64,000 nucleotides of DNA from a virus, in the IMG/VR virus record IMGVR_UViG_3300032093_000049, positions 36,017 through 100,016 of that record, one strand, 5' to 3'. Under the pieces are notes generated by a model. That model worked only from the letters and a program-made list of their open reading frames with translations. It did no database searches and was not told the origin of the DNA. A program made the position numbers and the translations under genes. Shown piece after piece: positions 31,620 through 46,978 of the stretch (its first letter is position 1; each line of letters opens with the position of its first letter).

Positions 31620-31844
31620 TTATTTTCCAATAAGAGGATCTATTGCTTTTTTCATATTTCTACGAAACGTAATATTACTTTTAGCTTTTATATCTCTATG
31701 AGTAAACTGCCAAAATTCTCCTGTACTATTTATAATCACAGTATAAATAGTGTCTGTCTCATGACCATAGTCTGTTATCATCCATATGAAGCCTGAGCCT
31801 TTTGGTGTATCTACTTCTACTCTATTTTTAGGTTCATACATCAT
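31620..31844 (-). CDS. Small hypothetical beta protein (likely start MMYEP)
   Basis: VDTPKGSG...DYG.E......GEFW pattern. Confidence 0.6.
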   Translation of the reverse strand: MMYEPKNRVEVDTPKGSGFIWMITDYGHETDTIYTVIINSTGEFWQFTHRDIKAKSNITFRRNMKKAIDPLIGK

Positions 31845-32508
31845 ATTCAATAATTTTAATTCTTTCATCTCTTCCTACTAGTTGCTTGTATAAGTCTACA
31901 TCACTAGACCATTCTTGACCGGTCCAAAACTCAAACCCGGGATAGTTAGCTTTATACTCACAACATTTTTCATACCCACCTAAGAGATAAACATATTCAC
32001 AATCAAGTAGCTTAGCAGTCTCACATTCATAGTACTGAGCAACTGTACCTAGGGATAATTTAGGGTCTGCATAATCCCATATAAACTGATATGCTACAAA
32101 CTGTGTTTCAAACTGTTTATATAAACTAATCCCTACTAGGTAATCTGTCCAGTATTCTATAACCTGACAATCTTTAAAAGACTCTAACTTAATATCTCTT
32201 TTAAACCCATGATAAGAACAGTACTTTTCATAAAGCTCTTCATACATCTCTTTATGAGCTAATACATCTCCTACAGCAACATTAACTTTCTTAGATAATT
32301 TTTTTGTAGTCTTTGTGGGTTGATAAATACTCAGATCTAATCTAGTGCTACGCTCATTATACCATCTGCCCTCCCATGGTATCCATCCTTGCTTTAGTGC
32401 ATCTATACAAGATTCATTTGGTTCTAATATACCATAGGCACAGTTAATGATAAGCTCTAGATCACTGACTTTACCAAAGCCTTTGATATGGTCAAAGTAT
32501 ACTTTCAC
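31834..32508 (-). CDS. ATE1/Bpt-like aminoacyl-tRNA--protein transferase (224 aa)
   Basis: LYEKY...H, WDYADPKLSLGT, YVYL.GY...C.YK..Y matches ATE_C; STRLDL...PTKTTKK matches the ATE_N tail. Confidence 0.78.
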   Translation of the reverse strand: MKVYFDHIKGFGKVSDLELIINCAYGILEPNESCIDALKQGWIPWEGRWYNERSTRLDLSIYQPTKTTKKLSKKVNVAVGDVLAHKEMYEELYEKYCSYHGFKRDIKLESFKDCQVIEYWTDYLVGISLYKQFETQFVAYQFIWDYADPKLSLGTVAQYYECETAKLLDCEYVYLLGGYEKCCEYKANYPGFEFWTGQEWSSDVDLYKQLVGRDERIKIIEYDV

Positions 32509-32918
32509 TTAGTAAATTTATCTAGCTTAAGCATCTTCACTATCCTATTAGTAATATCTTCTGCTTCAGATATTGTCTCTTCTTCCTTATCCCGGATATC
32601 CCAGTTATTAAGCAAAATAACTATATGCATAGCCTCATGATTAACAAGGGTAATATCAGTAAACTTTCCAGTAAAGTGTTTTTTGTTCAGAAAGAGAAAA
32701 GGTTTATACGGGGCTTTTGCTGTAAGCTTCTTGTCCCGGGGATCATAATTAGTCCAACCATATATATAAACACCATTACCTGTAGTCTTATCAACTTCTT
32801 CTGCCTGGGCATCTTTACGGTTCAACCCGTGCATCTCTTTGACACCATAGTAATCAAAGATCTCAGTAGCATCATCTCCTATAAGAAGAACAAACTTCCC
32901 CATATCAATCTTCTTCAT
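32505..32918 (-). CDS. HExxH zinc-metallopeptidase-like protein (likely start MKKIDM, 137 aa)
   Basis: LVNHEAMHI with downstream EE; ATGA overlap with the transferase gene. Confidence 0.6.
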   Translation of the reverse strand: MKKIDMGKFVLLIGDDATEIFDYYGVKEMHGLNRKDAQAEEVDKTTGNGVYIYGWTNYDPRDKKLTAKAPYKPFLFLNKKHFTGKFTDITLVNHEAMHIVILLNNWDIRDKEEETISEAEDITNRIVKMLKLDKFTK

Positions 32919-32995
32919 AAGGTAAAGATAAAACAAAATACTATAAGGGTAAAATTTTAATACTATAGTAGAGCATGTGATGGGTCCTATATCAC

Positions 32996-33056
32996 AAGCC
33001 CCCCGGCTGCCGCGCAAGGGTGGGGACCCCCCTTGACTTGCACCACGTGGGAGCAA
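32996..33056. other. GC-rich island at the divergent strand switch
   Basis: gccccccggctgccgcgcaagggtggggaccccccttgac in an otherwise AT-rich genome; coding strand flips here. Confidence 0.6.
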
Positions 33057-33122
33057 TCTTGCAGCAAAGCATGCAACTTTTTTCCCTTGTCAAAAAGTTT
33101 TTGCTTATGCTGGATTGCATGC

Positions 33123-33144
33123 TTGTTCAGACAACCCTTTACTC
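33123..33144 (+). promoter_or_regulatory. Early promoter-like repeat, copy 1 (core GACAACCCT)
   Basis: ttgttcagacaacccttTactc; similar copies at 33580 and 34792. Confidence 0.6.
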
Positions 33145-33169
33145 ATTTTGTAACATAAACTTATACAAA

Positions 33170-33493
33170 ATGAAAAAACAATTTTCTTGCACAGCTTTGT
33201 TCCAGTACAATGCCAAGGATGGCAATTGGGACCAAATCATCATTAAAGCCTCTGATGTGGCAATGCCACCAGAGACTTATGAAGGTGTCACTCGGCCAAA
33301 AACATATTGGCCAGTTCACACCAATTATGCTCAGGCATGCAAACTTGTCAGCGGTATGACATACCTTGCCACGTTTACACTCACACCTGAGCCGGGCCAA
33401 CCTCATGACAAACTCAGTTTGTCTGATATTGACCCAATCAAGAGCAAGATTGAGCAAAGACAGCTTGCTGCCGAGCTCAAATCTGCTCAATGA
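33170..33493 (+). CDS. Early hypothetical protein (likely start MKKQF, 107 aa)
   Basis: A-rich leader, follows the repeat motif, ends before a terminator. Confidence 0.65.
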   Translation: MKKQFSCTALFQYNAKDGNWDQIIIKASDVAMPPETYEGVTRPKTYWPVHTNYAQACKLVSGMTYLATFTLTPEPGQPHDKLSLSDIDPIKSKIEQRQLAAELKSAQ

Positions 33494-33499
33494 TTGCAC

Positions 33500-33527
33500 A
33501 GAGTAACAGAAATGTTACTCTTTTTTT
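33500..33527 (+). terminator. Intrinsic terminator
   Basis: agagtaaca-gaaa-tgttactct followed by a T tract. Confidence 0.85.
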
Positions 33528-33579
33528 CTTCACATTTTTTCACAACAACTTCTCTTTCTTACGCAGACTATGCACATCC

Positions 33580-33600
33580 TTGTTTGGACAACCCTTAACT
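33580..33600 (+). promoter_or_regulatory. Early promoter-like repeat, copy 2
   Basis: ttgtttggacaacccttaact downstream of a terminator. Confidence 0.6.
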
Positions 33601-33680
33601 TAACATGGACACAAGCAGAAATGCACATGTGTTCACAGGTAATTCACTTTATTTATTCACATCTTAAAAACTTACACAAG

Positions 33681-34220
33681 ATGGCACTTAAAGCAACATG
33701 GTCTTTCTCAAGAAAAGACACAACAGGCAAAGCAGACGAATTATTGGCACGTGGTGACAAAGGAGTTTGCCCAGAAGGACACAGACATTTCTATACTGTC
33801 TCAGGTCCTAAAGAAGAACTGCAGTTGTACATTGACACTGTCAAAACAGCAACATTCAATCCGGTCAGTGATGATGGATCAGTTATCTTCTCAACTCTTT
33901 ATCCAAGCATTACAGATGAGTGCACACTCTACAGATCACGCAAAGTGAATCCAAAGACTGGCACTTATAACTACGGTTTGGATGAATCAGGCTTTACACG
34001 TCTTACTGGTCAGTTAGACAGAGTTAAGAATGAGAAGATCCAAGACATTCTCATCAATGCAAAGGCTTACAGTGTTATGGGGCTCAAGCCAAGTGCAACT
34101 GCTGTACAGGCAATGAACAGCATTGACATTGATTCTGTAGATGATGACACTGATCAGGACACAGAGGCTCCAAAGCCTAAAGCAAAAGCCAAAGTAAATC
34201 CAGAGAGTGAAGCAGAGTAA
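33681..34220 (+). CDS. Early hypothetical protein with acidic tail (likely start MALKAT, 179 aa)
   Basis: A-rich leader; the upstream extension overlaps the repeat motif. Confidence 0.65.
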   Translation: MALKATWSFSRKDTTGKADELLARGDKGVCPEGHRHFYTVSGPKEELQLYIDTVKTATFNPVSDDGSVIFSTLYPSITDECTLYRSRKVNPKTGTYNYGLDESGFTRLTGQLDRVKNEKIQDILINAKAYSVMGLKPSATAVQAMNSIDIDSVDDDTDQDTEAPKPKAKAKVNPESEAE

Positions 34221-34242
34221 CTCAAGGATTTCACATGATCAC

Positions 34243-34273
34243 ACAGGGTGGGCACATGCCTGCCCTGTTCTTT
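34243..34273 (+). terminator. Intrinsic terminator
   Basis: acagggtgggca/tgcctgccctgt stem plus tcttt. Confidence 0.65.
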
Positions 34274-34302
34274 AACAATTCAATCACTTAACCTTACACA
34301 GC

Positions 34303-34491
34303 ATGAATCCATTGTACTCAATTTACAACACTATCTTCACATATACTAAAGATGGTATTGAACACATCACAAGTAATCCTTACTTAGCATTAAAAAGAAA
34401 GGCACAAGGTCTTCAGGTTAAACGTTACATTATAACAGAAGAAGGCACTTATTCATGGTCATGGGAATACAGTTATCCACCTACAATATAA
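34303..34491 (+). CDS. Hypothetical protein (62 aa)
   Basis: ORF; weakly similar to 35622..35750. Confidence 0.55.
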   Translation: MNPLYSIYNTIFTYTKDGIEHITSNPYLALKRKAQGLQVKRYIITEEGTYSWSWEYSYPPTI

Positions 34492-34506
34492 CAAACATTA
34501 CACATT

Positions 34507-34722
34507 ATGAAACCATTTGTTACAAAAGGAAAATTAGTTCTATTCATTACTGAACAAGACTACACAAACATTGAACAAGCATTTGTACATGCAGTCAAAT
34601 TAGGATACAGGCTAGAATCAGAAACTAGCAATCCTATCATAGGCAAGACACTTATAATGGTACAAGACTACACAGGTCTTTCACCATACAATAATAAACA
34701 ATCCCCAATTACTATAGAGTAA
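34507..34722 (+). CDS. Hypothetical protein (71 aa)
   Basis: ORF with A-rich leader. Confidence 0.55.
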   Translation: MKPFVTKGKLVLFITEQDYTNIEQAFVHAVKLGYRLESETSNPIIGKTLIMVQDYTGLSPYNNKQSPITIE

Positions 34723-34748
34723 TCTACAGTTTATGTTACACAAGACAT

Positions 34749-34777
34749 GAGCAGGGCTACACAAGCCTTGCTCTTTT
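34749..34777 (+). terminator. Intrinsic terminator
   Basis: gagcagggct/agccttgctc plus tttt. Confidence 0.65.
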
Positions 34778-34791
34778 GTCTTTCTCATATC

Positions 34792-34813
34792 CTATTTGGA
34801 CAACCCTCTACTC
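34792..34813 (+). promoter_or_regulatory. Early promoter-like repeat, copy 3
   Basis: ctatttggacaaccctctactc downstream of a terminator. Confidence 0.55.
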
Positions 34814-34937
34814 AAACTGATACAGGATATGCAGATATATGTACATTGAATACTGTTAATTGTATATTCTCCCTGGTCACTGAAACTGTATCAGCGTATG
34901 CACATGTGTATTAAGTATTAACTATTCACAATATACT

Positions 34938-35025
34938 ATTCTTGGATTCCTAAAGGTAAACAAGTCTTGGAAATTACGGGGTGAGTATCCAGTAAACACT
35001 GGAAAACATTCTTGGATTCCTAAAG
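34938..35025. repeat. Perfect 18-bp direct repeat pair, 70-bp period
   Basis: attcttggattcctaaag at 34938-34955 and 35008-35025. Confidence 0.85.
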
Positions 35026-35194
35026 TTGAGTATAAATAATACATAATTACTTTAAGTAAGAGGGGCTAAGTAGTTGAGAATCAATCATACCTTATACTCA
35101 TACTACTTAACCAAAGCTCAAAATACACACATAAGTAGCCACTCTTCACTGAGTATATGGCTATAAAACACTGCAATCAATTAAAACTATACAT

Positions 35195-35467
35195 ATGAAA
35201 AGAGAGTATATGATTACAACTGTATTTGTTCTACTATCTATTGTATTCTTTACTATAGGATTCTCTATAGGAGACATTAATAGAAGAGCAACAGAGTCTC
35301 CCGCGGATATATCTCAGGACTGGTCTGATGTTGGTGGTAACATTGACATAGAATACTACTTAGAAGTATCTGAAGATAGTATCTGGATAGAAAACTACAA
35401 TACCCACAAAGTATATGGTGGTAAGTATTCAGATCTTGACAGTCTAATACTAATAGACAATCTTTAA
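35195..35467 (+). CDS. Membrane-anchored hypothetical protein (90 aa)
   Basis: N-terminal TM segment, acidic remainder. Confidence 0.65.
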   Translation: MKREYMITTVFVLLSIVFFTIGFSIGDINRRATESPADISQDWSDVGGNIDIEYYLEVSEDSIWIENYNTHKVYGGKYSDLDSLILIDNL

Positions 35468-35560
35468 TTAATACGTAACCCTTTTATCTGATTACATATA
35501 TGTATGATTACTCTTTGTATGAGTATTACTTTATTAAGTAGTCTCATAGCCACCCGAGAT

Positions 35561-35588
35561 TATCCTGAGTATGATATAAAACTACTCA
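35561..35588 (+). promoter_or_regulatory. Putative H-type RNA pseudoknot, copy 1
   Basis: tatc[ctgagtat]gata...tactca; loop TGAGTA pairs with downstream TACTCA. Confidence 0.55.
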
Positions 35589-35621
35589 TTCATTAGTATA
35601 TTCACCCTCAAAATAAATTAC

Positions 35622-35750
35622 ATGGAGGATAACAAAGTAATACTCTTTGAGTATACAAGAAATGGTGTTACTTATTACACCCCAAATGAAATCATTGCCA
35701 GCATGCGCAGTGAAGACGGTAAGTACTATAGCATAGAGTACACACTGTAA
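35622..35750 (+). CDS. 42-aa protein (not in ORF track)
   Basis: MEDNKVILFEYTRNGVTYYTPNEIIASMRSEDGKYYSIEYTL. Confidence 0.6.
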   Translation: MEDNKVILFEYTRNGVTYYTPNEIIASMRSEDGKYYSIEYTL

Positions 35751-35766
35751 ATTAATTACCAATATT

Positions 35767-35861
35767 ACTCTCATCCAATTGCAGGATAACATACTACCAA
35801 TTGGCTTATGATGCCTCGGTGTTGGATGTATGTCAAGGGTTGCAACCTTGTGAGAGTACCA
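35767..35861 (+). ncRNA. tRNA-shaped RNA with encoded ACCA end and non-canonical loops (95 nt)
   Basis: actctca/tgagagt 7-bp stem plus ACCA; caagg-gttgcaa-ccttg 5-bp/7-nt arm; tcc-aattgca-gga arm; acatac/gtatgt long arm. Confidence 0.5.
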
Positions 35862-35864
35862 TAT

Positions 35865-35943
35865 AACAAAGAGAACAACTCGTACCATGGGGTTGCCTGT
35901 TAGATCAACAATGGTTAGGTCGTGGGCTTTAGTTCTCTTTGTT
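35865..35943 (+). ncRNA. Long stem-loop element
   Basis: aacaaagagaac/gttctctttgtt 12-bp closing stem. Confidence 0.4.
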
Positions 35944-35950
35944 TTATTAA

Positions 35951-36105
35951 TGCACCATTCCTGATTCCCAAGGTCAGGCAGTTGTAAGTATCATCTTAAG
36001 TTCCAAGAGAGTACTTGTGCATCACGAGTGGAATGTAGACTGTGAAACCGTAACGGGTGGAGTTTATGTACTTGCACAGTGATCTTACAACTGAGTGCAG
36101 AGGGG
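35951..36105 (+). ncRNA. Structured RNA, scaffold family copy A
   Basis: tgcac...cctga/tcagg hairpin, cagttgtaag/cttacaactg stem, gtgca-gagggg. Confidence 0.6.
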
Positions 36106-36144
36106 TATAAACAATAGATTAATAAAACTTAAAACTCAACTCAA

Positions 36145-36339
36145 ATGAACTATCTTATCAAAACCCAATCAGGTAACATGTACTCTTACTATACTACTAA
36201 AGACCTATCTAAATATATAGGGAGTAGTACACATATCTCCATTGGAGATGAATCATTCACGATACTACAAGTGTTAGAAGAGTATACTCCCTCAAAACGA
36301 TATATAGGTAATGAACCTTATGTTGTAACAGAACCTTAA
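36145..36339 (+). CDS. Hypothetical protein (64 aa)
   Basis: AACTCAAATG leader. Confidence 0.6.
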   Translation: MNYLIKTQSGNMYSYYTTKDLSKYIGSSTHISIGDESFTILQVLEEYTPSKRYIGNEPYVVTEP

Positions 36340-36352
36340 TTTAAAACTTAAA

Positions 36353-36574
36353 ATGAAAACAATTAAATCAATAACTGAAGAAAACTTTTTAGAGTATGTT
36401 ATACTTACAAGAAAGTTGAGAAAACATATAATGGTGATGGAATCATTGATGATTTTTAATAAAAGAAAGGGTAACAAAACAGGTTATTTCAAGAATCAAA
36501 TTGAGATAGCAGAAAAAAACTTCTTGAAATACAATAGACAGGTGCAAAGCCTGTATCCTAATGCACTAATCTGA
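36353..36574 (+). CDS. Hypothetical protein (73 aa)
   Basis: aaaacttaaaatg leader; 3' end overlaps RNA copy B. Confidence 0.55.
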   Translation: MKTIKSITEENFLEYVILTRKLRKHIMVMESLMIFNKRKGNKTGYFKNQIEIAEKNFLKYNRQVQSLYPNALI

Positions 36575-36666
36575 CCTTGGTCAGGCAGTTGTGATACTAA
36601 CATGTAGTTAGCCTGTGAGTATACGGGATGCTGGAATACCAGTTATCACAACTAAGTGCAGAGGGG
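36562..36666 (+). ncRNA. Structured RNA, scaffold family copy B
   Basis: tgcac...ctgac/gtcag hairpin, agttgtgata/tatcacaact stem enclosing three hairpins, gtgca-gagggg. Confidence 0.6.
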
Positions 36667-36763
36667 TCAAATAATAGGTTAGTAAAAATAGTTTAGAGCG
36701 GAACGGTTCCACTAACCTATGCTACATTGGTGGATAACCTCTGTAGCACTAATCTATCTTTGA

Positions 36764-36848
36764 TGCACTGACACAACTAATGAACAGAGGCCGTCATCAC
36801 AGGATTTATTCTGTCTATCTGCCTAGTAGTTAGTTGTGTCTCAGTGCA
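36764..36848 (+). ncRNA. Structured RNA related to copies A/B (element C)
   Basis: tgcactga/tcagtgca and cacaactaa/ttagttgtg stems. Confidence 0.45.
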
Positions 36849-36885
36849 AAAAAGTATTAATCAGTAACCAATTAAACACACATAT

Positions 36886-37047
36886 ATGATTTCAAATTTG
36901 ATTTTGGAAATTGCTGTATTAGTAACAGCAGTAAATGGTTCTTGTCCTAAAGAGTACAAAGAATCATTAAGTAAATTACAGAAGAGTGATTTGCTTATGC
37001 TCAAAGAATCTTATGAGCAAGAACTCTCTATTGTTACAAAAAATTGA
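36886..37047 (+). CDS. 53-aa protein (not in ORF track)
   Basis: MISNLILEIAVLVTAVNGSCPKEYKESLSKLQKSDLLMLKESYEQELSIVTKN. Confidence 0.5.
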   Translation: MISNLILEIAVLVTAVNGSCPKEYKESLSKLQKSDLLMLKESYEQELSIVTKN

Positions 37048-37212
37048 TGCATCTTTAGGATGCAGGTGGTTGGGAAGCATACCTTATGAACTTTCAAAAG
37101 TGCAGCCGTGCTGTTACACATTTATGTGGCTATACAGATAACGCGGTCAGTAGAAGCACCAGAAGAGCTAATAACTTTAGGCTCTTATTTATCAACTCAA
37201 AAATCAACTCAA

Positions 37213-38070
37213 ATGAAAATTCACTTAAAATCTAGACAAGGATTATTTACTGTAGTTACCTATGGTAGAAACTCAATAACACTGTGCACTAAGCATGAAA
37301 CATTTAGTGTACCATCTGAAGACTTCAAATGTTTTGCAGGTGGTGGATGGGCAGAGTCTACAGCTGAAGAACAAAGACTGTTTATGTCAGTAGTAGCTCC
37401 TCTTGCTCTTCAAAAAACAATGGAGATAGAAGCAAAGATAACTGCAATGGCAAGTTTAATTGATATCAGAGACAAAGCAAAGAATCTTGCTTCTGAGTAT
37501 ATATCTGCTATTGCTGCACAAGAAGGAGAAGACTATGAAAATACAGTTCTCAATACTGATGATCTTGAAGATTCTTATGAAGCTGAAATGAGAAGACAAG
37601 ATCTTGCAAGAACTCCTGAACAATGGTATGCTAAAATTCAAGAGAAGCAAGATGAAACTGAGAGATTAAGAAAGAAACTTGTAAATATTGCTTCTAAAGT
37701 CTATAAGTCACCAGTTGATTTATCAGACTTTCAGAATAGCAATGGTATCAAGTTTATTATACAAGTTGCCCATGATGATGAAACAGATTGCAGAATGTGT
37801 TTTGATCCATATCAATTTGTAGAGAACTTTCATAGCTCTATCAGTGAAGTATACCGTAACAGCAAATATTTTACTGCTAATGGTGGATGGTTGAAAGTAA
37901 TAGGTAATGATGTTATCCTTTACTATAAATCAGGAGACTATGGTGTGTATAATGATACTGTTGCTATAGAGTGTGCAAAGAGACTGTTCCCAAATAAAGA
38001 AATTCATTCTTATGCGGGAAGACAATGGGATTCAGAATTAGATAATCTATTTACAGAATTACCATTTTAA
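37213..38070 (+). CDS. Hypothetical protein ending ELPF (likely start MKIHLK, 285 aa)
   Basis: AACTCAAATG leader; H...GGW...SGDYG C-terminal domain. Confidence 0.7.
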   Translation: MKIHLKSRQGLFTVVTYGRNSITLCTKHETFSVPSEDFKCFAGGGWAESTAEEQRLFMSVVAPLALQKTMEIEAKITAMASLIDIRDKAKNLASEYISAIAAQEGEDYENTVLNTDDLEDSYEAEMRRQDLARTPEQWYAKIQEKQDETERLRKKLVNIASKVYKSPVDLSDFQNSNGIKFIIQVAHDDETDCRMCFDPYQFVENFHSSISEVYRNSKYFTANGGWLKVIGNDVILYYKSGDYGVYNDTVAIECAKRLFPNKEIHSYAGRQWDSELDNLFTELPF

Positions 38071-38075
38071 CCTGC

Positions 38076-38104
38076 TGTCCTGAGTATGACGTTTAAAGTG
38101 CTCA
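38076..38104 (+). promoter_or_regulatory. Putative H-type RNA pseudoknot, copy 2
   Basis: tgtc[ctgagtat]gacg...gtgctca; compensatory changes relative to copy 1. Confidence 0.55.
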
Positions 38105-38126
38105 TTTAACTTAAAAATTAACTCAA

Positions 38127-38294
38127 ATGAAAACTTACATTGACTTTTATAACTTCTTTAAGAAGTTCTCTATTCAGTCTCTTGAAGAGATTAGAAAAGA
38201 GATTTGCCTAGATGGTAAGAGTAAAATCAATTCTCTTAAACTAAGAGTAATTGATGATCTATGCTATCTTAAACAATATGATATTCAACTTTAA
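38127..38294 (+). CDS. 55-aa protein (not in ORF track)
   Basis: MKTYIDFYNFFKKFSIQSLEEIRKEICLDGK...; AACTCAAATG leader. Confidence 0.6.
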   Translation: MKTYIDFYNFFKKFSIQSLEEIRKEICLDGKSKINSLKLRVIDDLCYLKQYDIQL

Positions 38295-38305
38295 AACCAA
38301 CTCAA

Positions 38306-38524
38306 ATGAGAAAAGCAGAAGCACTTCAGAAAACAAGAGAAAGATTTACTAATCTGTTAGATGGTAAAATTCTTCCAAGGTACAGTGTCACAGATATTAT
38401 TGTATATTATGAGACACTCATTGCTAAAAATGCAGCACCGGTAATTAACCGTGGCAGTGGTATTGTAGATAACTTTATAGAGGAACAAGTTAGAGACTAT
38501 GAAGAAGATGATGACTACTGTTGA
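38306..38524 (+). CDS. Hypothetical protein (72 aa)
   Basis: AACTCAAATG leader. Confidence 0.6.
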   Translation: MRKAEALQKTRERFTNLLDGKILPRYSVTDIIVYYETLIAKNAAPVINRGSGIVDNFIEEQVRDYEEDDDYC

Positions 38525-38613
38525 ATTAACTATGCAGGAGATATGGCAGGCCACACGGCCTGTCATACAGAAGAATAAGAAAAAGTATACACGTAAAACC
38601 AAACACAAGAAAG

Positions 38614-38838
38614 ATGAGTAAACTTAAATTAAACTTTGCTACTCGTGTAGCAAGTATGGCAATGGCTAAGAGTGAAAGCTCTAATGCTTACAATGTTGAG
38701 AGAACAAAGATACAGTCTGCAATCAATGCTAATCCAGTTCTTATTGACAGGTCTGTGTTCAAGAAAACAGAGATAGAAAGATTAGAACTTTCTAATGCTA
38801 AAAGCAAATGGAAGAGAGCACAGAAGAATCAAGGGTAA
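38614..38838 (+). CDS. Hypothetical protein (74 aa)
   Basis: ORF in operon. Confidence 0.55.
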   Translation: MSKLKLNFATRVASMAMAKSESSNAYNVERTKIQSAINANPVLIDRSVFKKTEIERLELSNAKSKWKRAQKNQG

Positions 38839-39584
38839 TTATCTTAGCTCATCAGAATAGTTTTGATAGAAGCAGAGAGTTTCTACAGAAATCAGTTGAT
38901 GAGCAAAGATTCTTATTCTATGAGAACAGAATTACTGACTTTCATTTGTATAAAGTAATAGAGACTGATACTCACATCTATTGGAGTGAAGATAAGTTTA
39001 AACCCAAGTTTAACAAGAGTTTATTTTATATCACTACAGGTGTCTCAGGTATTAGTTTTGACAAGAAGACCAGAGACCTGAAATTTTGGTTTGGCAAAAC
39101 ACCACATCCATTCATTATAGAATCCTTTTTAGGACGTATGAATACAGGTTGGTGGTGTGAGCTACCAAGATCATTTCAGGAGTATTTTACTCTCTCTTTG
39201 GCTAAGGCAGTTGCAAAAAACAAAATAAACACAATAGAAGATTATGCTACGCACTTGTGTAAGCGGTCATTGATATTTAAGAATGTAGATCCAAAGTCTT
39301 TGTGTAAAATGATATATGTACTGAAAGCTCAAACTGATATATTTCATGTGAGCTTAAGCTATATCGGTAGTGCATTGTCTGTTGCAAAAGATAAAGATGA
39401 CTGTATAGAGTATTTAATTAGCAAGAGTCATTATTATCATACTGAGGATGCTATTAGATATGCACAGGCTCTTAACTTAAAGATTGACTTTACAAATCTT
39501 GATGATGAAGCTGAAAGACTTAGAAAAATCTACTATGTTACAAAACAGCTGTATTGTCCTGATGATGCAGTATTACCATTTTAA
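38808..39584 (+). CDS. Hypothetical protein ending DDAVLPF (258 aa)
   Basis: Long ORF. Confidence 0.65.
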   Translation: MEESTEESRVIILAHQNSFDRSREFLQKSVDEQRFLFYENRITDFHLYKVIETDTHIYWSEDKFKPKFNKSLFYITTGVSGISFDKKTRDLKFWFGKTPHPFIIESFLGRMNTGWWCELPRSFQEYFTLSLAKAVAKNKINTIEDYATHLCKRSLIFKNVDPKSLCKMIYVLKAQTDIFHVSLSYIGSALSVAKDKDDCIEYLISKSHYYHTEDAIRYAQALNLKIDFTNLDDEAERLRKIYYVTKQLYCPDDAVLPF

Positions 39585-39595
39585 AACAACTGATT

Positions 39596-39946
39596 ATGAA
39601 AAGTATGATTTTATTAATCCAGCTACTTGCTGGAAAGCCTGATTATGAACCAATGGAGTTAGTTATTGATATACAAACTCCAATTGAACAATGTGAATGG
39701 TACTACATTGAAAATGACAAACTGTATGACCTGGGAGTACCTGAGTATCAAGGGTCTAAGTTAGTTCTCTATGTACAACAGTACCGTGACTATGAGATAG
39801 TAATAAATAATCATACTATAATCTCAATTACTCCTATGAGTGATGATATTATAGATGAGAGAGATTTATCTATCTCAGCACACACTAACTACGAGTTTAG
39901 ACATGGAGTATTAGTATTTGAACCTTTAGAACTCACATCCAAATGA
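39596..39946 (+). CDS. Hypothetical protein (116 aa)
   Basis: ORF with short hydrophobic N-terminus. Confidence 0.55.
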   Translation: MKSMILLIQLLAGKPDYEPMELVIDIQTPIEQCEWYYIENDKLYDLGVPEYQGSKLVLYVQQYRDYEIVINNHTIISITPMSDDIIDERDLSISAHTNYEFRHGVLVFEPLELTSK

Positions 39947-40012
39947 AAACATTAATCGTAGTATTTACAGCACTGGCAGTAGTTTTTGCCGGTGTTGTTC
40001 TTGTAGTAAGAC

Positions 40013-40459
40013 TTGCTAACTATTTTGAGAAAGATGATACAAATAAGTCTTAATGAGTCTGATCTATACAATGTAATTAAGAAACATGTAAAGAATGAGG
40101 ATATTGCACGTTTACTGTGTGATACTCTTGGTTCATCACATCCTGGTACAGAGTGGCTATTTAAAATTCATTTAGGTGCTAAGTATCCTGAAGTACCAGC
40201 AATAGGTGCACATGGATACATATCTATTGAGAATTATAAAGGCTGGTCTGGTGATAAGGATAAGTACAAAGACTCCATGTTTAATCAACAAGGGTATATT
40301 CCTGTTACTGTAAAAAGTTTTCAGGGGTTACACAACTATTATCCACTAAGAGTACTTGCCCCAGGAGCAATTGATGAACAGACAGGGGAAGCATGGAATA
40401 ATGAATTTGCTGTTGATGTAAAGGATTTTATACCCACTGATGAGTTTGATTTGTACTAG
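40013..40459 (+). CDS. Hypothetical protein (true start probably MIQISL)
   Basis: ORF. Confidence 0.6.
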   Translation: MLTILRKMIQISLNESDLYNVIKKHVKNEDIARLLCDTLGSSHPGTEWLFKIHLGAKYPEVPAIGAHGYISIENYKGWSGDKDKYKDSMFNQQGYIPVTVKSFQGLHNYYPLRVLAPGAIDEQTGEAWNNEFAVDVKDFIPTDEFDLY

Positions 40460-40470
40460 TTAGCTATATA

Positions 40471-40809
40471 GTGCAATCAAAGATGTGCTGTAATTTACAC
40501 TTAAGTTTAAATAGCATATATTTACTCTTATTTGTAAAATTGTACTATCAATTACCGAATGGCAAGACTGTCTACTTAACAGTAGAAGAATATCTAGATC
40601 TCACTGATGCAGATATACAGTACTTGATGTCTCTAGACTACGGTGAATCAGTGCTTAATCCCTTCTATGGCTCTTGTGTGGATAAAAAAGAGTCTGAAAA
40701 AGTCTATGACTTTGAGTGTTTACCAGAGTCAGATGATGAAATTGTGAATATGCCTTCAGATGATATACCATTTGATGACATTATAGATTTATCGGATCCA
40801 CTTGAATAA
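40471..40809 (+). CDS. Acidic hypothetical protein (true start probably near LYYQLPNGK)
   Basis: YQLPNGKTVYLTVEEYL; DDIPF near the C-terminus. Confidence 0.6.
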   Translation: MQSKMCCNLHLSLNSIYLLLFVKLYYQLPNGKTVYLTVEEYLDLTDADIQYLMSLDYGESVLNPFYGSCVDKKESEKVYDFECLPESDDEIVNMPSDDIPFDDIIDLSDPLE

Positions 40810-40844
40810 TAGTATTGTTACTCGCGATATACAATACTACCACT

Positions 40845-40890
40845 TATCAAACAACTTGAGTAATTGTTGATATAGTAATTTCCTACTCAA
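40845..40890 (+). promoter_or_regulatory. Putative H-type RNA pseudoknot, copy 3
   Basis: tatcaaacaa[cttgagtaa]ttgttgata...tactcaa. Confidence 0.45.
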
Positions 40891-40929
40891 AAAGTCAATT
40901 CATTTATTTATTAATCAAAATTTAGAGCT

Positions 40930-41403
40930 ATGAACTCTTCAGTTAAAGTAGTAGCAGATGCTACATCAGGTGCAGTTGTTAATGTTTCAGAAAACAACCC
41001 AATTTACGGTTACATTCGTTTAGAGCAAACACGTGTAATGATTGATGACAATGGTTTTGTTAAACCTAAAACAATTTCTACACTATTGCAAGGTGAAGTT
41101 GAAACACTTCAGTCTCTTGGATTCTACAATGGTCAGGAACTTCCAGGTAAAATTTCTATTATTGAGTCTCTTGAAGCATTTAATAAGAAGAATCCTGAGC
41201 GTGACCTGAAAATTGCAGGTGAAACAGGTATTGTTTGTACTGTAGCAGGTGCTCCAATTTACCGCAAAACTGTATACTCAGCATCAGTAAATGCAGAAGA
41301 TACATTGATCAAGCATGACAATGTAGATCAGCTGAGAGCTGCTTATGCAAATAAGTCTGCTGCTATCAAAGCAAATACAAACTTTGATGAATTAGGTAAT
41401 TAA
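40930..41403 (+). CDS. Probably highly expressed protein, possibly ssDNA-binding (157 aa)
   Basis: Beta-rich, followed by its own terminator; function is a guess. Confidence 0.55.
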   Translation: MNSSVKVVADATSGAVVNVSENNPIYGYIRLEQTRVMIDDNGFVKPKTISTLLQGEVETLQSLGFYNGQELPGKISIIESLEAFNKKNPERDLKIAGETGIVCTVAGAPIYRKTVYSASVNAEDTLIKHDNVDQLRAAYANKSAAIKANTNFDELGN

Positions 41404-41419
41404 TACCTGATTAGGTAGA

Positions 41420-41455
41420 AGAGAGAGTGGACTTCGTCCACTTTCTCTTTTTTTT
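41420..41455 (+). terminator. Intrinsic terminator with cUUCGg-like loop
   Basis: agagagagtggac-ttcg-tccactttctct plus T tract. Confidence 0.85.
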
Positions 41456-41469
41456 ATTGTAATTATTAA

Positions 41470-42009
41470 ATGTATATCAATATGGAAAAGTTAAACAAAA
41501 GAAAAGACAGATTTGAGTACACAGGTAAACTTGAAGAGTATCAGTTAATGCCTAAGAAACTCACAATGGAGTATGAAATTGATAAATATACTTCGTATCA
41601 AAACTATCTATACAAAAGAGCTTTGTATGGACTTAATGCCCTCACACAACAAGAGCTTACTACTATGTGTAGTAAAAAGAAGAAGAGGATTGAAAGAGTA
41701 TATCTAAGAGGACAACAGGTAATTAACCTCCACAAACAGAAATTGACAAATCAAATCACAAATCTGTTGTTCAATAGATTATTTCCAGAGTCTCCAATTG
41801 CTCAGTTCTTTACTAACAATAGTGAGACTGATGATAAGTTCAAGAATACCCTAAACTTTAAAGATTTAAACATCACAAAAGATGATATTATTTGTATCTT
41901 TATTCAAGAAGGTGTTCTACCAAAGAACTTTATGGAGATCTCTACAGATCCTAATCAATTGCCAAGATTAAGAAATGCAAGCAAAGAAAAAGCTGTGCTC
42001 GGGATGTAA
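41470..42009 (+). CDS. Hypothetical protein (179 aa)
   Basis: ORF. Confidence 0.65.
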   Translation: MYINMEKLNKRKDRFEYTGKLEEYQLMPKKLTMEYEIDKYTSYQNYLYKRALYGLNALTQQELTTMCSKKKKRIERVYLRGQQVINLHKQKLTNQITNLLFNRLFPESPIAQFFTNNSETDDKFKNTLNFKDLNITKDDIICIFIQEGVLPKNFMEISTDPNQLPRLRNASKEKAVLGM

Positions 42010-42373
42010 TACTGAGCAATATATTTGGAAGAGACACCTTGGGGAACCTTACTGTAAGACATGCTGGAGTTGCCACAAAAGCAAAGACCCTTCACAGAAA
42101 CCAACACTTATCCCCAAGGTCTCTTCTAAACGTAAAAAACTAGATGATGAATATCTCAAACTAAGAGAGAGATTCATGACTGAACATACTTTGTGTGAGG
42201 TGAAGGTAACCGGTTGTATGATGCATGCCACAGACGTGCATCATACATATGCCGGTGCCAACAGAAATGTGTATTACCTTATACAAAGTACGTGGTTAGC
42301 AGTCTGTAGGAATTGTCACAATTGGGTGCATGAACATCCAGAACAGGCTAGAGAATTAGGTTATTTAAAATGA
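41975..42373 (+). CDS. HNH-like Zn-binding nuclease (132 aa)
   Basis: CxxC...CxxC N-terminus; C....GC...ATDVHH...CRNCHNWVH. Confidence 0.75.
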   Translation: MQAKKKLCSGCNTEQYIWKRHLGEPYCKTCWSCHKSKDPSQKPTLIPKVSSKRKKLDDEYLKLRERFMTEHTLCEVKVTGCMMHATDVHHTYAGANRNVYYLIQSTWLAVCRNCHNWVHEHPEQARELGYLK

Positions 42374-43128
42374 TGTATATGATTAAAAAAATAGTAAGGA
42401 ATCACACAAACTGTAAAAAGTGCGGTGTAGAACTAATTGAGAGAAATAGTAGGTTATCTACATATGATAAAGATACTGGAGTTTACTTTCTTAAAAGTAC
42501 ATGTAACCACTGTTCAAGAAAAGCTAAGTTCTGTGTTTATACGTATGCAACTCCAGAGTTAGAAAAGTTTGCTGCTAAACAAGCTAAAATGCTACATGGT
42601 AAAAGTTACTATAAAAGAATTATTAAGCCTAAAAAAGAAGCTGTCAAGATTCCTTATGTGGAACCAAAAGAATGTAAACAATGTGGTGTTAAACTTTGTG
42701 ATAAAAATGAACTGTATATAGTTTCAGCAGTTAATCACAAGAGTGCAAAGTGTAAGACTTGTACATATGGATATAAAAGTTGTAAAGTGGTTTATCCTAC
42801 TGAAGAACTTCAAATTTTATCTAAGAAAAACAATATAAGGTTAAATCTTAAAATAGATAAAGTTAGAAATCCCGAAGTGTACAAAGCAGCACTTAAGGTA
42901 ACCCTTGAGAAATACAAAGACAAATACACAGTTAATCAAAAGGTTTACTCCAAAAAACAAAGAACTGCACTTGGTGATGTTTATATAAAACAACGTATTG
43001 CTGGGAATCACAAGTTAAATGTTCAACAAATAACCCCTGAGTTAATTGAAGTTAAGAGAAAACAGTTAGAGTTAATAAGAACAATTAAACAAATAGAGTA
43101 TGAGCAAAGTAAACACAAAACAGATTAA
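42370..43128 (+). CDS. Basic protein with duplicated Zn-ribbon (252 aa)
   Basis: CKKCGVEL...CNHC and CKQCGVKL...CKTC; LGDVYIKQ...ITPELIE.KR C-terminus. Confidence 0.65.
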   Translation: MMYMIKKIVRNHTNCKKCGVELIERNSRLSTYDKDTGVYFLKSTCNHCSRKAKFCVYTYATPELEKFAAKQAKMLHGKSYYKRIIKPKKEAVKIPYVEPKECKQCGVKLCDKNELYIVSAVNHKSAKCKTCTYGYKSCKVVYPTEELQILSKKNNIRLNLKIDKVRNPEVYKAALKVTLEKYKDKYTVNQKVYSKKQRTALGDVYIKQRIAGNHKLNVQQITPELIEVKRKQLELIRTIKQIEYEQSKHKTD

Positions 43129-43279
43129 GGATGTTGCTGATAAGTCAGAACAAATTGGCAACAAGGCATATGACACATTCAATAAGAGTGGTAAAATTGA
43201 AGCTGGGAAGCTTGCTATTGCTGCATTTAAGAACACACTGTATGCAAACAGTCTATTGATTAAGAATGAGAAAATCTAA
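43100..43279 (+). CDS. 59-aa protein (not in ORF track)
   Basis: MSKVNTKQIKDVADKSEQIGNKAYDTFNKSGKIEAGKLAIAAFKNTLYANSLLIKNEKI. Confidence 0.6.
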   Translation: MSKVNTKQIKDVADKSEQIGNKAYDTFNKSGKIEAGKLAIAAFKNTLYANSLLIKNEKI

Positions 43280-44036
43280 CAACTTAAAAATTATGATTAT
43301 GGAAATGATTGGAAAAGAACTTAAAATTAAGTATGCAAATGATTACTCAAAGTTTGCTGTATTGCCAATGAATAGAGCAATAGATAGTAAACATGTACAG
43401 AAAATGATTGCAAGTATGAGGAAAATTGGAGTAGTTAGAACTGTTATTACTACTACTACAAATCTAATAGAGGGTACAATGAAGACTTATATTATTGATG
43501 GTCAACACTTAGCTACTGCTCTTGAAAGAGAGGGTTTACCTATTCCTTATATTGAAAGATCTGTTCAGTCTGAAGAAGAATTAATTGAGATTATGGCCTA
43601 TATGAATAATTCAAGTAAGTCATGGGACATGATGGATTTTATCAATGCATGGAAAATGATTCGTCCTGATTACATGAAGTTATTTAAGTGGAAGAATATG
43701 TATGATATTGAAGTTACTATGCTTGCAATGATAGCTATCAATAACATTGCAATTAGACATAATACATCCATCATTAAAACAGGTAACTTTATTATTACTA
43801 ATCCACAAGCTGAGCAAATGTGTAAAGCATTTAATGAGATCTTTATAAAGATTGGTAATGTAGACAGACCTGTTAAATTTCAGTTTCTTCATGCTTTTTT
43901 ACAAGCTTACAGTACATACAGTCATCAAAAAGTAATGGCAAATCTTGATAAGCACATCAAAACTGTAAAGCTTATTGCTAATTCAGAAGAAAGTGGAGCT
44001 TATATAAGAAAAAGAATTTTCAATTTACCAAAATGA
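43266..44036 (+). CDS. ParB/Srx-like domain protein
   Basis: NRAID..HV.KM..SM and IIDGQH motifs (canonical GQHR Arg replaced by Leu). Confidence 0.75.
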   Translation: MRKSNNLKIMIMEMIGKELKIKYANDYSKFAVLPMNRAIDSKHVQKMIASMRKIGVVRTVITTTTNLIEGTMKTYIIDGQHLATALEREGLPIPYIERSVQSEEELIEIMAYMNNSSKSWDMMDFINAWKMIRPDYMKLFKWKNMYDIEVTMLAMIAINNIAIRHNTSIIKTGNFIITNPQAEQMCKAFNEIFIKIGNVDRPVKFQFLHAFLQAYSTYSHQKVMANLDKHIKTVKLIANSEESGAYIRKRIFNLPK

Positions 44037-45127
44037 CAAGAGACGAGATACAAGAACAAGCATTGAAAGCTACTGAAGGTAGACATAGATGTGGTTTGGG
44101 TTTGGGCACAGGGGTCGGTAAGACCCTTGTTGGCCTAAAACATATTGAACAACATTGTACACCTCTTAAAAATGTTCTTGTAGTTGGTCCAACCAGAAGT
44201 ATTCTATCTGAATGGCAAGTGCAAGCACATAAGTTTAAGAAAGACAGGCTGTTAAGCCAGGTTACTTTTACCACTTATTTAAGTCTAAATAAACATGATC
44301 CTGCAGATTATGATTTACTCTATCTTGATGAGTGTCATAGTCTATTGGATTCTCATAGAGAGTTCTTAGAGAACTATAGTGGTAAGATATTAGGTTTGTC
44401 AGGTACTCCTCCAAAGAGAAGCCATTCTGAGAAAGGTGTAATGGTCAATGAGTTTTGTCCTATTGTCTACAATTACTTTATTGATGATGCAATTGAGGAT
44501 AATATCTTAAATGACTATAAGATCATTGTACACCAGCTCAAATTAGGTACAGCAAAAGATGTTAAGGTAGATACCAAATCAGGTGGTTTTATGACTACAG
44601 AACAGGCTAACTATTCTTATTGGTCTAATAGGATATCCGGTGCTAGTGGCAAAGGACTGCAGATAGCAAGAATTATGCGTATGAAAGCTCTTATGGCTTA
44701 TCCAAGCAAAGAGAAGTATGCAAAGCTTCTTTCTGACAGTATTAAAACCAAGTGTATTATCTTTGCTAATACTCAGGAGCAAGCAGATAGACTCTGTGAA
44801 CATAGTTATCATAGTAATAACTCTAAGTCTTTAGAAAACTTAAATAAGTTTAAGAGAGGTGAGATACTTAAGTTGGCTGCAGTAATGCAGTTGAATGAGG
44901 GTGTTAACATCCCAGAACTAAAGCAAGGTATTATCATGCATGCCTATGGTAATGAGAGAAAGTCTGCCCAGAGAATTGGTAGATTGTTGAGACTTAATCC
45001 TAATGACACAGCAGTAGTTCATATACTATGTTACATGGATACTGTAGATGAAGCATGGGTTAAGGAAGCTCTTGAAGGGTATGATCAAAACAAAGTCACC
45101 TGGAAAGATTTTAACATCAAACTTTGA
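44033..45127 (+). CDS. Superfamily 2 DExH helicase (364 aa)
   Basis: GTGVGKT, DECH, SGT, EGVNIP, QRIGRLLR. Confidence 0.9.
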   Translation: MTRDEIQEQALKATEGRHRCGLGLGTGVGKTLVGLKHIEQHCTPLKNVLVVGPTRSILSEWQVQAHKFKKDRLLSQVTFTTYLSLNKHDPADYDLLYLDECHSLLDSHREFLENYSGKILGLSGTPPKRSHSEKGVMVNEFCPIVYNYFIDDAIEDNILNDYKIIVHQLKLGTAKDVKVDTKSGGFMTTEQANYSYWSNRISGASGKGLQIARIMRMKALMAYPSKEKYAKLLSDSIKTKCIIFANTQEQADRLCEHSYHSNNSKSLENLNKFKRGEILKLAAVMQLNEGVNIPELKQGIIMHAYGNERKSAQRIGRLLRLNPNDTAVVHILCYMDTVDEAWVKEALEGYDQNKVTWKDFNIKL

Positions 45128-45162
45128 GGTACATGATTTTTTATTAATTTAACTGAAACAAT

Positions 45163-45417
45163 ATGGTTTTGGAAAAGACACATCAGCTGGTTTTATACAA
45201 TGACTCAGAGAATGATTTTCTCTATGTCATGGCCTTGCTTATAAGGTATTGTAACCATGAAAGAGACCAGGCTGAACAGTGTGCATTGATAGCACACAAT
45301 GTAGGTAAATGTAATATCAAGTCAGGCAATATAGTAGACATACTTGAAATGCATGCTAATCTTAGTCAATTAGAACTTAAAGTAGAAATTGAAGAGTATG
45401 CAGGTGATATGTATTGA
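45163..45417 (+). CDS. clpS: ClpS N-degron adaptor, Bacteroidota type (84 aa)
   Basis: LVLYNDSENDF...CNH...QAEQCALIAHNVGKC.IKSG. Confidence 0.82.
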   Translation: MVLEKTHQLVLYNDSENDFLYVMALLIRYCNHERDQAEQCALIAHNVGKCNIKSGNIVDILEMHANLSQLELKVEIEEYAGDMY

Positions 45418-45658
45418 TGACTCAAGAAAACCAAAACAGATTCCTCAAGAGAAGTGGATAAGAAAAGGTCAAATCTATACAGTAATAGGTGCGTCCCATT
45501 TAAGTATTCAGAAGAACAAGATTGGTCTAAAACTAAAAGAAATAGAATTAGACCAGTCTTGCTTTCCATATGAGTACTTTGATGCTAATAGATTTAAACC
45601 AACTGAATTAGCTGAAGCTTTATCTAAGGAAGAAGTGTTTGAAATGGAACAAGTTTAA
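45389..45658 (+). CDS. Small SH3-like hypothetical protein
   Basis: VICIDD...KGQIYTV...YFDANRF. Confidence 0.6.
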   Translation: MKSMQVICIDDSRKPKQIPQEKWIRKGQIYTVIGASHLSIQKNKIGLKLKEIELDQSCFPYEYFDANRFKPTELAEALSKEEVFEMEQV

Positions 45659-46431: not shown

Positions 46432-46629
46432 ATGAAAGAGGTGATTAACTTTTTCAAATACTTAGTGGTGTGGATAAGTCAAAACTTGTCCATACCATTT
46501 TGGATGGTGGGTCATATTCATTTATCCACTAATATCTATGAAGATATTTATGAAATCTTAGCTTCAATTGGAATGAATCTAATTGTTGCTGTAGGGTTTA
46601 TTATAGATTACTTAGATTCAAGAAAATAA
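46432..46629 (+). CDS. Small membrane protein (65 aa)
   Basis: Two hydrophobic segments. Confidence 0.6.
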   Translation: MKEVINFFKYLVVWISQNLSIPFWMVGHIHLSTNIYEDIYEILASIGMNLIVAVGFIIDYLDSRK

Positions 46630-46637
46630 AAACTTAA

Positions 46638-46785
46638 GCCTCCATAGCTGTTAGGGTCGCAACTGAAGCAGTGAGTGGTTCAGATAGAAATATGTAACAA
46701 GCATACTCTATGACGGTAGAGATTTGAAAAAAGATGCTGTAACCTAGAGTAATCTGATAGGTGGGTTCAATTCCCACTGGAGGCA
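46638..46785 (+). ncRNA. Oversized tRNA-like RNA (148 nt) with canonical acceptor stem and T-arm
   Basis: gcctcca/tggaggc 7-bp stem, TAGCT after it, gtggg-ttcaatt-cccac T-arm; central part ~70 nt longer than a tRNA. Confidence 0.7.
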
Positions 46786-46807
46786 CAAACTTTTAAAATC
46801 AAAGAAA

Positions 46808-46978
46808 ATGATTGTATTTCACATAATTGCAGTATTATCAGTAGTAATACTATTTATTTCATGTATAGTAATTGCATTTACTGAAAAGTATATACCAATA
46901 TGGATAAGAATTATTCTGCCATTGCTTACATTTCCTTTGGTTCTTGCAGTATTAGATTCAATTTATAGAAACCTTTAA
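46808..46978 (+). CDS. 56-aa two-TM protein, paralog 1 (not in ORF track)
   Basis: ...KYIPIWIRIILPLLTFPLVLAVLDSIYRNL. Confidence 0.7.
   Translation: MIVFHIIAVLSVVILFISCIVIAFTEKYIPIWIRIILPLLTFPLVLAVLDSIYRNL

Follow-up and report, generated by a model that had tools for sequence, protein, structure and literature searches.

A putative ATE-like transferase cassette and a ClpS without N-terminal extension in a probable crAss-like phage: perhaps two separate modules rather than one N-degron toolkit

Does a virus that encodes both a predicted aminoacyl-tRNA-dependent transferase of the ATE/Bpt type and a ClpS protein possess a coherent N-degron toolkit, in which the one protein writes a destabilising residue and the other reads it? 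The question is raised by the window, a stretch of 64,000 nucleotides that makes up the right-hand 64 kb of one viral contig of 100,016 bp (IMG/VR record IMGVR_UViG_3300032093_000049) and whose source, judged from its sequence relationships, is probably a crAss-like phage with a host among the Bacteroidota. A first-pass annotation had proposed such a toolkit, and the observations on which it was built were accurate: the open reading frame (ORF) at 31834..32508 carries the quoted ATE_C motifs (WDYADPKLSLGT, YVYLLGGY and CEYKANY), the ORF at 45163..45417 carries the ClpS pattern (YND, QAEQC and H..GKC), and the two genes lie ~13 kb apart on opposite arms. The automatic annotation of the Joint Genome Institute (JGI) likewise already gives names to both proteins. 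The features on which the argument turns are (aa, amino acids):

31834..32508, minus strand: predicted ATE/Bpt-like aminoacyl-tRNA-dependent transferase, 224 aa, GTG start, Pfam ATE_C
31623..31841, minus strand: conserved small partner ORF, 73 aa here with a core of ~65 aa, overlapping the stop of the transferase
45163..45417, plus strand: ClpS core domain without N-terminal extension (NTE), 84 aa, Pfam ClpS

With a rough probability of 0.55 we favour the reading that these genes represent two separate modules, a mobile ATE-like cassette and an NTE-less ClpS that belongs to the core of the phage lineage, and not a single toolkit. The distribution of the genes was evaluated in a lineage sample that was blind to both of them: the conserved gene at 40930-41403, which lies between the two, was used as anchor and 10-kb flanks were taken, yielding 80 loci. 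ClpS was present in 63 of these, essentially all those whose downstream sequence was long enough, and the transferase in 13; the transferase-positive loci with enough downstream sequence all contained ClpS (9/9), and so did 17 loci that have a complete upstream flank and no transferase. Among related whole records that were picked regardless of either gene, ClpS occurred in 14/14 (including 9/9 at ≥90% completeness) and the transferase in 0/14, by a profile search whose control recovered 5/5 known positives. The cassette, in turn, was found outside the reach of ClpS: the complete 124-kb genome G006 of an unrelated phage (terminal repeats, only 25% TerL identity) encodes a transferase of 74% identity together with the partner and no detectable ClpS, the 187-kb contig G009 (64% complete) has a transferase and no ClpS that we could find, and in two 635-kb phages with ClpS no transferase was found. 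We conclude from these results that ClpS is a core gene, that the transferase and its partner constitute a horizontally mobile accessory cassette, and that the co-presence of both in the genome of the window, given their independent distribution, carries no statistical weight. The functional writer-reader pairing of the first-pass annotation, which had itself named independent distribution as the outcome that would speak against it, is thereby largely undone.

The two family assignments, on the other hand, stand. Against Pfam, the transferase scores 28.8 bits for ATE_C (cut-off 25, E 2e-6, residues 88-193) and the other ORF 42.6 bits for ClpS (cut-off 23, E 5e-11), both well outside what chance would give, so that of the profiles originally suggested as a check these two pass their thresholds and only ATE_N gave no match. 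The NCBIfam Bpt models reach 14-26 bits on the transferase against cut-offs of 170-358, and since the equivalog matches for Bpt and ClpS both remain far under their cut-offs, the two proteins should be regarded as divergent members of their families.

Homologues of the phage ClpS (97 were retrieved) are nearly all 82-88 aa long. A search of the PDB with the single sequence gave no match at E 0.1, and a profile built from ten phage copies retrieved the ClpS proteins of E. coli, Caulobacter and Plasmodium and the ClpS-like domain of UBR1. In the profile alignment, positions 6-53 correspond to E. coli residues 27-75, which places the beginning of the phage protein at about E. coli residue 22. The alpha-amino group of the substrate is held in E. 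coli ClpS by N34, D35 and H66. The equivalents of the first two, N13 and D14, are invariant in the 56 unique phage copies, as is the QAEQC motif, and the equivalent of the third, H45, is present in the window ClpS and in 49 of the 56 unique relatives. At E79 and K84 of the E. coli protein, on the surface that binds the N-domain of the Clp unfoldase, the phage proteins would, by our own mapping, commonly have an acidic residue in the former column and no basic one in the latter, the alignment being unreliable beyond residue 53. The start methionine lies 12 residues ahead of the ND pair in 53 of 63 phage copies, i.e. ~4-5 residues before the core. For 27 cellular ClpS proteins of Bacteroidota the first ATG is at least 26 residues before ND (median 33), and every sampled ClpS from Bacteroidota and from huge phages has at least 18 residues before the core. 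The identity to the ClpS of a metagenome-assembled genome (MAG) of the Chitinophagaceae is 36%, and the motif HER.QAEQCA is common to both; on this basis the phage protein is best described as a ClpS core of the Bacteroidota type from which the extension has been lost.

The functional weight of that loss can be gauged from E. coli, where the NTE enters the channel of ClpA and blocked entry inhibits ClpS-assisted degradation (PMC9663308; PMC8138137), and where most of the NTE sequence tolerates change (PMC9663308). The host side appears well equipped: ClpS was found in 60 of 61 sampled Bacteroidota genomes, and the MAGs that were searched each encode two Clp_N unfoldases of ~870 aa, as well as ATE_C proteins and, in one MAG, Aat, while the phage encodes no Clp_N protein of its own. 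Where the cell already possesses a full ClpS, an additional truncated one would suit the role of a competitor or shield at least as well as that of an adaptor, and we therefore infer from the sequences that blocking is at least as likely as delivery. The second module would thus be a lineage-core ClpS behind the helicase gene of the replication arm, derived from a Bacteroidota-type ClpS. As its amino-group-binding residues are kept and its NTE is lost, it would most likely bind N-terminal Leu, Phe, Tyr and Trp, and perhaps the N-domain of the host Clp, and compete with the host ClpS; it would then shield such proteins or re-tune the host Clp and not deliver substrates.

The rival that survives best regards the phage ClpS as a functional adaptor which, without any transferase, turns the host ClpA/C-ClpP on natural or cleavage-generated N-degrons. 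It is consistent with the conserved binding triad and the Clp_N unfoldases of the hosts, it is the role proposed for the ClpS of jumbo phages (Iyer et al., PMC7824862), and the tolerance of the E. coli NTE to change would allow for it. It nevertheless appears doubtful to us, given that 4-5 residues precede the core where the sampled relatives have at least 18, that ClpS-assisted degradation is inhibited when the NTE is kept from entering ClpA, and that a plain duplicate would add little to a host that already has ClpS.

Two further properties of the phage ClpS were noticed. Cysteines occupy columns 25, 30, 40 and 50 of the family alignment in 54, 56, 56 and 51 of the 56 copies, respectively; cellular ClpS proteins of Bacteroidota share just two of these four positions, and the window protein has Leu at 25. 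The conserved cysteines may constitute a metal or disulphide site. Furthermore, an ORF of 89 aa at 45389-45658 on the plus strand overlaps the 3' end of the ClpS gene by 29 nt, and a similar counterpart follows ClpS on the phage contig of a Chitinophagaceae MAG (L064:1715-1984); it has neither a Pfam nor a PHROG match and could be a partner linked to ClpS.

Returning to the transferase, various lines of evidence converge on a predicted fold of the ATE/Bpt aminoacyl-tRNA transferase type. An ATE_C match was obtained for 45 of 61 family members, and an alignment of 20 sequences contains 63 invariant columns. The AlphaFold (AF2) model is of good quality (predicted local distance difference test, pLDDT, 84.6; predicted template-modelling score, pTM, 0.84), and a Foldseek search with it placed human, K. 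lactis and yeast ATE1 on top (E 2e-8 to 1e-6), followed by L/F-transferase, FemX and MprF. According to VIA-align, the ATE1 chains alone match the protein over its full length (residues 1-216, with 206-211 aligned, 16-18% identity and Z 12-14), and MprF, FemX and GNAT proteins cover ~130-170 residues. The profile of 61 sequences detected ATE1 in the PDB at E 2e-10, and by hhalign it is related, at a probability of 98.9%, to ATE_C proteins from two MAGs of the Chitinophagales.

The active site was mapped by carrying residues of the K. lactis enzyme (klAte1; PMC9351520) through the profile alignment, with column counts over the 61 family members. In klAte1, Arg80 (within GFRRSG) is essential for the binding of N-terminal Asp and Glu, E277 is the glutamate that binds the donor arginine, alpha-3 is the tRNA-binding helix, and the donor-pocket residues are S, S, E and Y in ATE1 and A, A, Q and L in Bpt (PMC9351520). 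Much of this machinery has a counterpart in the phage protein: Y185-K186 corresponds to Y303-K304 (the Lys being kept in 60/61), W144 to W260 (conserved in the family), E161 to E277 (Glu in 51/61) and the basic helix K66-K74 to alpha-3, and R53 and R56 are invariant. The donor pocket consists of A139, A157, E161 and V173, and across the wider family mostly of S, S, E and L; the retained arginine-binding Glu hints at a basic donor. The acceptor side looks different. No ATE_N domain was recognised by Pfam in the transferase or in any of its 61 relatives, and the N-terminal 80 residues contain no CxxC or CC motif that could represent the zinc cysteines of ATE_N; the N-lobe nonetheless aligns structurally with that of ATE1. 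In the profile alignment GW-I43-P44 stands opposite GF-RR of ATE1 and GW-YR of the Bacteroidota proteins, columns 43 and 44 are Leu/Ile and Pro or hydrophobic throughout the family, and the position of Arg80 is, by this alignment, taken by Pro44. With the zinc cysteines missing and, apparently, the Arg80 counterpart as well, the acceptor may be another than in ATE1 and Bpt.

The first module would accordingly be an accessory cassette, mobile and placed where the minus arm begins, that encodes a compact ATE-like enzyme and a partner of ~65 residues. The enzyme is predicted to use charged tRNA as the source of an amino acid, which it would transfer to the amino group of an acceptor, probably a protein N-terminus. 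As the zinc cysteines are absent and the Arg80 counterpart appears to be so too, the canonical pocket for acidic residues is probably not what reads this acceptor. The cassette might feed the N-degron route of the host and its ClpS pathway, or might cooperate with the phage ClpS where both occur.

Every locus with a close homologue of the transferase (41/41) has the partner ORF immediately 3' of that gene and overlapping its stop, and in three more distant loci (L040-L042) a weak homologue of it adjoins the transferase and is placed divergently. Its alignment over 10 sequences has 35 invariant columns. No Pfam match was found, the ESM Atlas returned viral hypothetical clusters only (DUF3104, at 0.77, is a weak lead), and the AF2 model (pLDDT 52) is unreliable and too poor for a fold search.

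The transferase family itself is small and almost wholly viral. At least 176 homologues were found at 52-84% identity, and the family comprises 336 clusters (E≤1e-3) among 1.84 billion representatives; in a set of 185,579 species (one genome each) it was recovered at 7 loci, all in MAGs and one of them a phage contig binned with Chitinophagaceae. A tblastn search of 50,697 phage records gave no match, and PHROGs contains no family for it. Recent capture from the host was considered and rejected, as BLAST shows no similarity between the phage protein and the ATE_C protein, of 253 aa, that a Chitinophagaceae MAG encodes. A few outlying sequences deserve mention. A relative of 217 aa with ~22% identity and a GFEWWDG motif lies on a 149-kb contig of Magasanikiibacteriota from the candidate phyla radiation (CPR; L061:9899-10549, plus strand), ~4 kb from a murB-like gene, and may represent a cellular branch of the family. 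Two short marine contigs that were binned as Betaproteobacteria TMED41 and Neomarinimicrobiota (L056:375-1145 and L058:2969-3778) encode ATE-like proteins of 257-270 aa and 28-30% identity, with phage-like ORFs adjoining, and beside them the 65-aa partner is not detectable. Finally, a complete 122.8-kb relative shows a transferase match with one in-frame TGA (G003:C1:115518-116198), where the match may merely extend beyond the stop.

An enzyme of this fold could also act on something other than a protein, and the second rival is that the ATE-like protein has a lipid, a cell-wall precursor or a small molecule as the target of its aminoacylation (compare MprF, FemX and Sbb17), or that it is an acyl-CoA-dependent GNAT. 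The structural scores give it some room, as MprF, FemX, aminoacyl-tRNA-dependent peptide synthases and GNAT acetyltransferases all reach Z 11-14. An Acetyltransf_6 match in 7 of the 61 family members and the missing zinc site and apparently missing acceptor-binding Arg point the same way. We consider it improbable, because the full-length alignment and the highest identity are found for the ATE1 chains alone, the YK motif, Trp and Glu that are specific for ATE are conserved, and the best profile matches are ATE1 and the ATE_C proteins of Bacteroidota.

The coupled toolkit with which we began, in which selected host proteins receive a destabilising residue from the transferase and are then handed by the phage ClpS to the host Clp protease, fares no better. 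Both homologues are indeed present and under strong purifying selection, the seven lineage members with a transferase (the window and six records) all have ClpS as well, at a conserved distance of 10-14.5 kb, and the Asn, Asp and His that bind N-degrons are kept in the phage ClpS. The occurrence of ClpS with or without the transferase, of the cassette in the ClpS-less G006 and G009, and of ClpS-bearing huge phages without the transferase all weigh against it, as does the chemistry on either side: the phage ClpS has no delivery extension, and the arginine for acidic N-termini does not appear to be conserved in the transferase family. According to the N-degron rules, N-terminal Arg is not read directly by ClpS, so that the Arg donor suggested by Glu161 would not produce a direct ClpS ligand. 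What remains of the proposed writer and reader is thus the assignment of the two families, and the pairing, which would join a transferase without an apparent Arg80 counterpart to a ClpS without NTE, is unlikely. Just as unlikely, in our estimation, is a variant in which the NTE-less ClpS caps N-degron termini by seizing them and so puts the ClpS-Clp route of the host out of action; in the phages that have the cassette too, newly aminoacylated N-termini would be captured or protected by this cap, and the virally rewired pathway would tag and hold its targets instead of destroying them.

The reading of two separate modules has to be weighed against several points. As all transferase-positive phages of the lineage possess ClpS, cooperation between the two is possible there. 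Ordinary GNAT acetyltransferases (VipF, Z 14.4) reach fold scores as high as those of ATE1; the fold therefore does not fix the chemistry of the enzyme, which has to be read from the sequence motifs. The mapping of Arg80 was made through sequence and profile alignment and not on a superposed structure. The NTE requirement is known for ClpS-ClpA of E. coli, and its extension to the Clp unfoldases of Bacteroidota is by analogy, such that a ClpS with a short NTE might still deliver its substrates or employ another partner. And the probable host is assigned from the relatives of TerL, the MAG bin and the similarity of ClpS.

The remainder of the window fits the picture of a phage with a minus and a plus arm, the minus arm reaching to ~33 kb and encoding further virion proteins besides those given here:

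11279-12895, minus arm: major head protein
14277-17006, minus arm: portal
17012-19216, minus arm: large terminase (TerL)
32505..32918, minus strand: ORF with an HExxH motif (HEAMH), 137 aa, opening the minus arm, its stop overlapping the start of the transferase
43266-44036, plus arm: ParB-like protein
44033-45127, plus arm: helicase, directly 5' of the ClpS ORF

The nearest named relatives of TerL, at ~25% identity, are those of crAss-like phages of Bacteroides and Flavobacterium, and a related phage contig of 117.8 kb sits in the bin of a Chitinophagaceae MAG. The ORF with the HExxH motif, which has neither a Pfam nor a PHROG match, was considered as a partner of the transferase and rejected: it is present in 27 of the 80 anchored loci, 18 of which have no transferase, the two occur together in 9, and four transferase loci are without it. 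Five neighbouring ORFs had no match in Pfam, most ORFs of the right arm have no family in PHROGs, and a 17-kb region compared with the 50,697 phage records by megablast gave no match. A tRNA gene, sought as a hint to the donor, was not detected by ARAGORN anywhere in the window, nor by Rfam at 46500-46900, where a sub-threshold match (22.6 bits, Plastid-ycf2) was seen on the minus strand around the T-arm-like GGGAAUUGAACCC.

A literature search returned no paper on a phage ATE/Bpt-like enzyme and, in the library searched, none that names crAss-like phages together with ClpS. Should the transferase prove active, ATE/Bpt biology would extend beyond cells to a minimal aminoacyl-tRNA transferase that is nearly confined to viruses, follows a new acceptor logic and has a small protein as its obligatory partner. 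The negative part of the outcome matters as well, as a story of writer plus reader should not be spread from co-presence in one genome; what is new here is a minimal viral ATE-like enzyme with its partner and an extension-less viral ClpS, and not a demonstrated N-degron toolkit.

Compared with known systems, the transferase is closest in fold and in profile to eukaryotic ATE1 (klAte1 7WFX/7WG1, yeast 7TIF/8E3S and human 8TZV), which it matches along its entire length and of which it keeps the counterparts of W260, E277, Y303-K304 and the basic tRNA-binding helix. It differs from ATE1 in being under half the size, in lacking the Cys4 zinc finger and a Pfam match to ATE_N, in having Pro or a hydrophobic residue aligned with Arg80 throughout its family, in a C-terminal GFE[WF]WTGxxW motif of its own, in its near restriction to viral sequence and in its constant pairing with an ORF of ~65 aa. 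To Bpt and the ATE_C proteins of Bacteroidota it is similar in length (224 aa versus about 240-255 aa), the homologous stretch being delimited by the GW and YK motifs; the subfamily of the window shares Ala/Ala with Bpt at two pocket residues, and keeps Glu where Bpt has Gln. These correspondences of donor and acceptor pockets with klAte1 are newly mapped here.

The phage ClpS has the same core domain as the proteins of E. coli and Caulobacter (1MBU, 3O2B and 3DNJ), with the counterparts of N34, D35 and H66 kept. It lacks the NTE of ~25 residues of the E. coli protein, has Ala at the counterparts of both M62 and V65, and belongs to a family with conserved Cys at 30, 40, 50 and usually 25. In jumbo phages ClpS had been noted before and read as an adaptor for the host ClpAP (Iyer et al. 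2021, PMC7824862; Atu_ph07, PMC6102473). The window protein shares 36-40% identity with its counterparts in jumbo and huge phages (LR745206 and LR756504), and the two huge-phage proteins examined are 93-94 aa long with 26-28 residues before ND, where the window protein has 12. To the picture drawn from those phages we add that a truncated ClpS is here a core gene of a crAss-like lineage with genomes of ~100-120 kb, and that the loss of the NTE is specific to this lineage.

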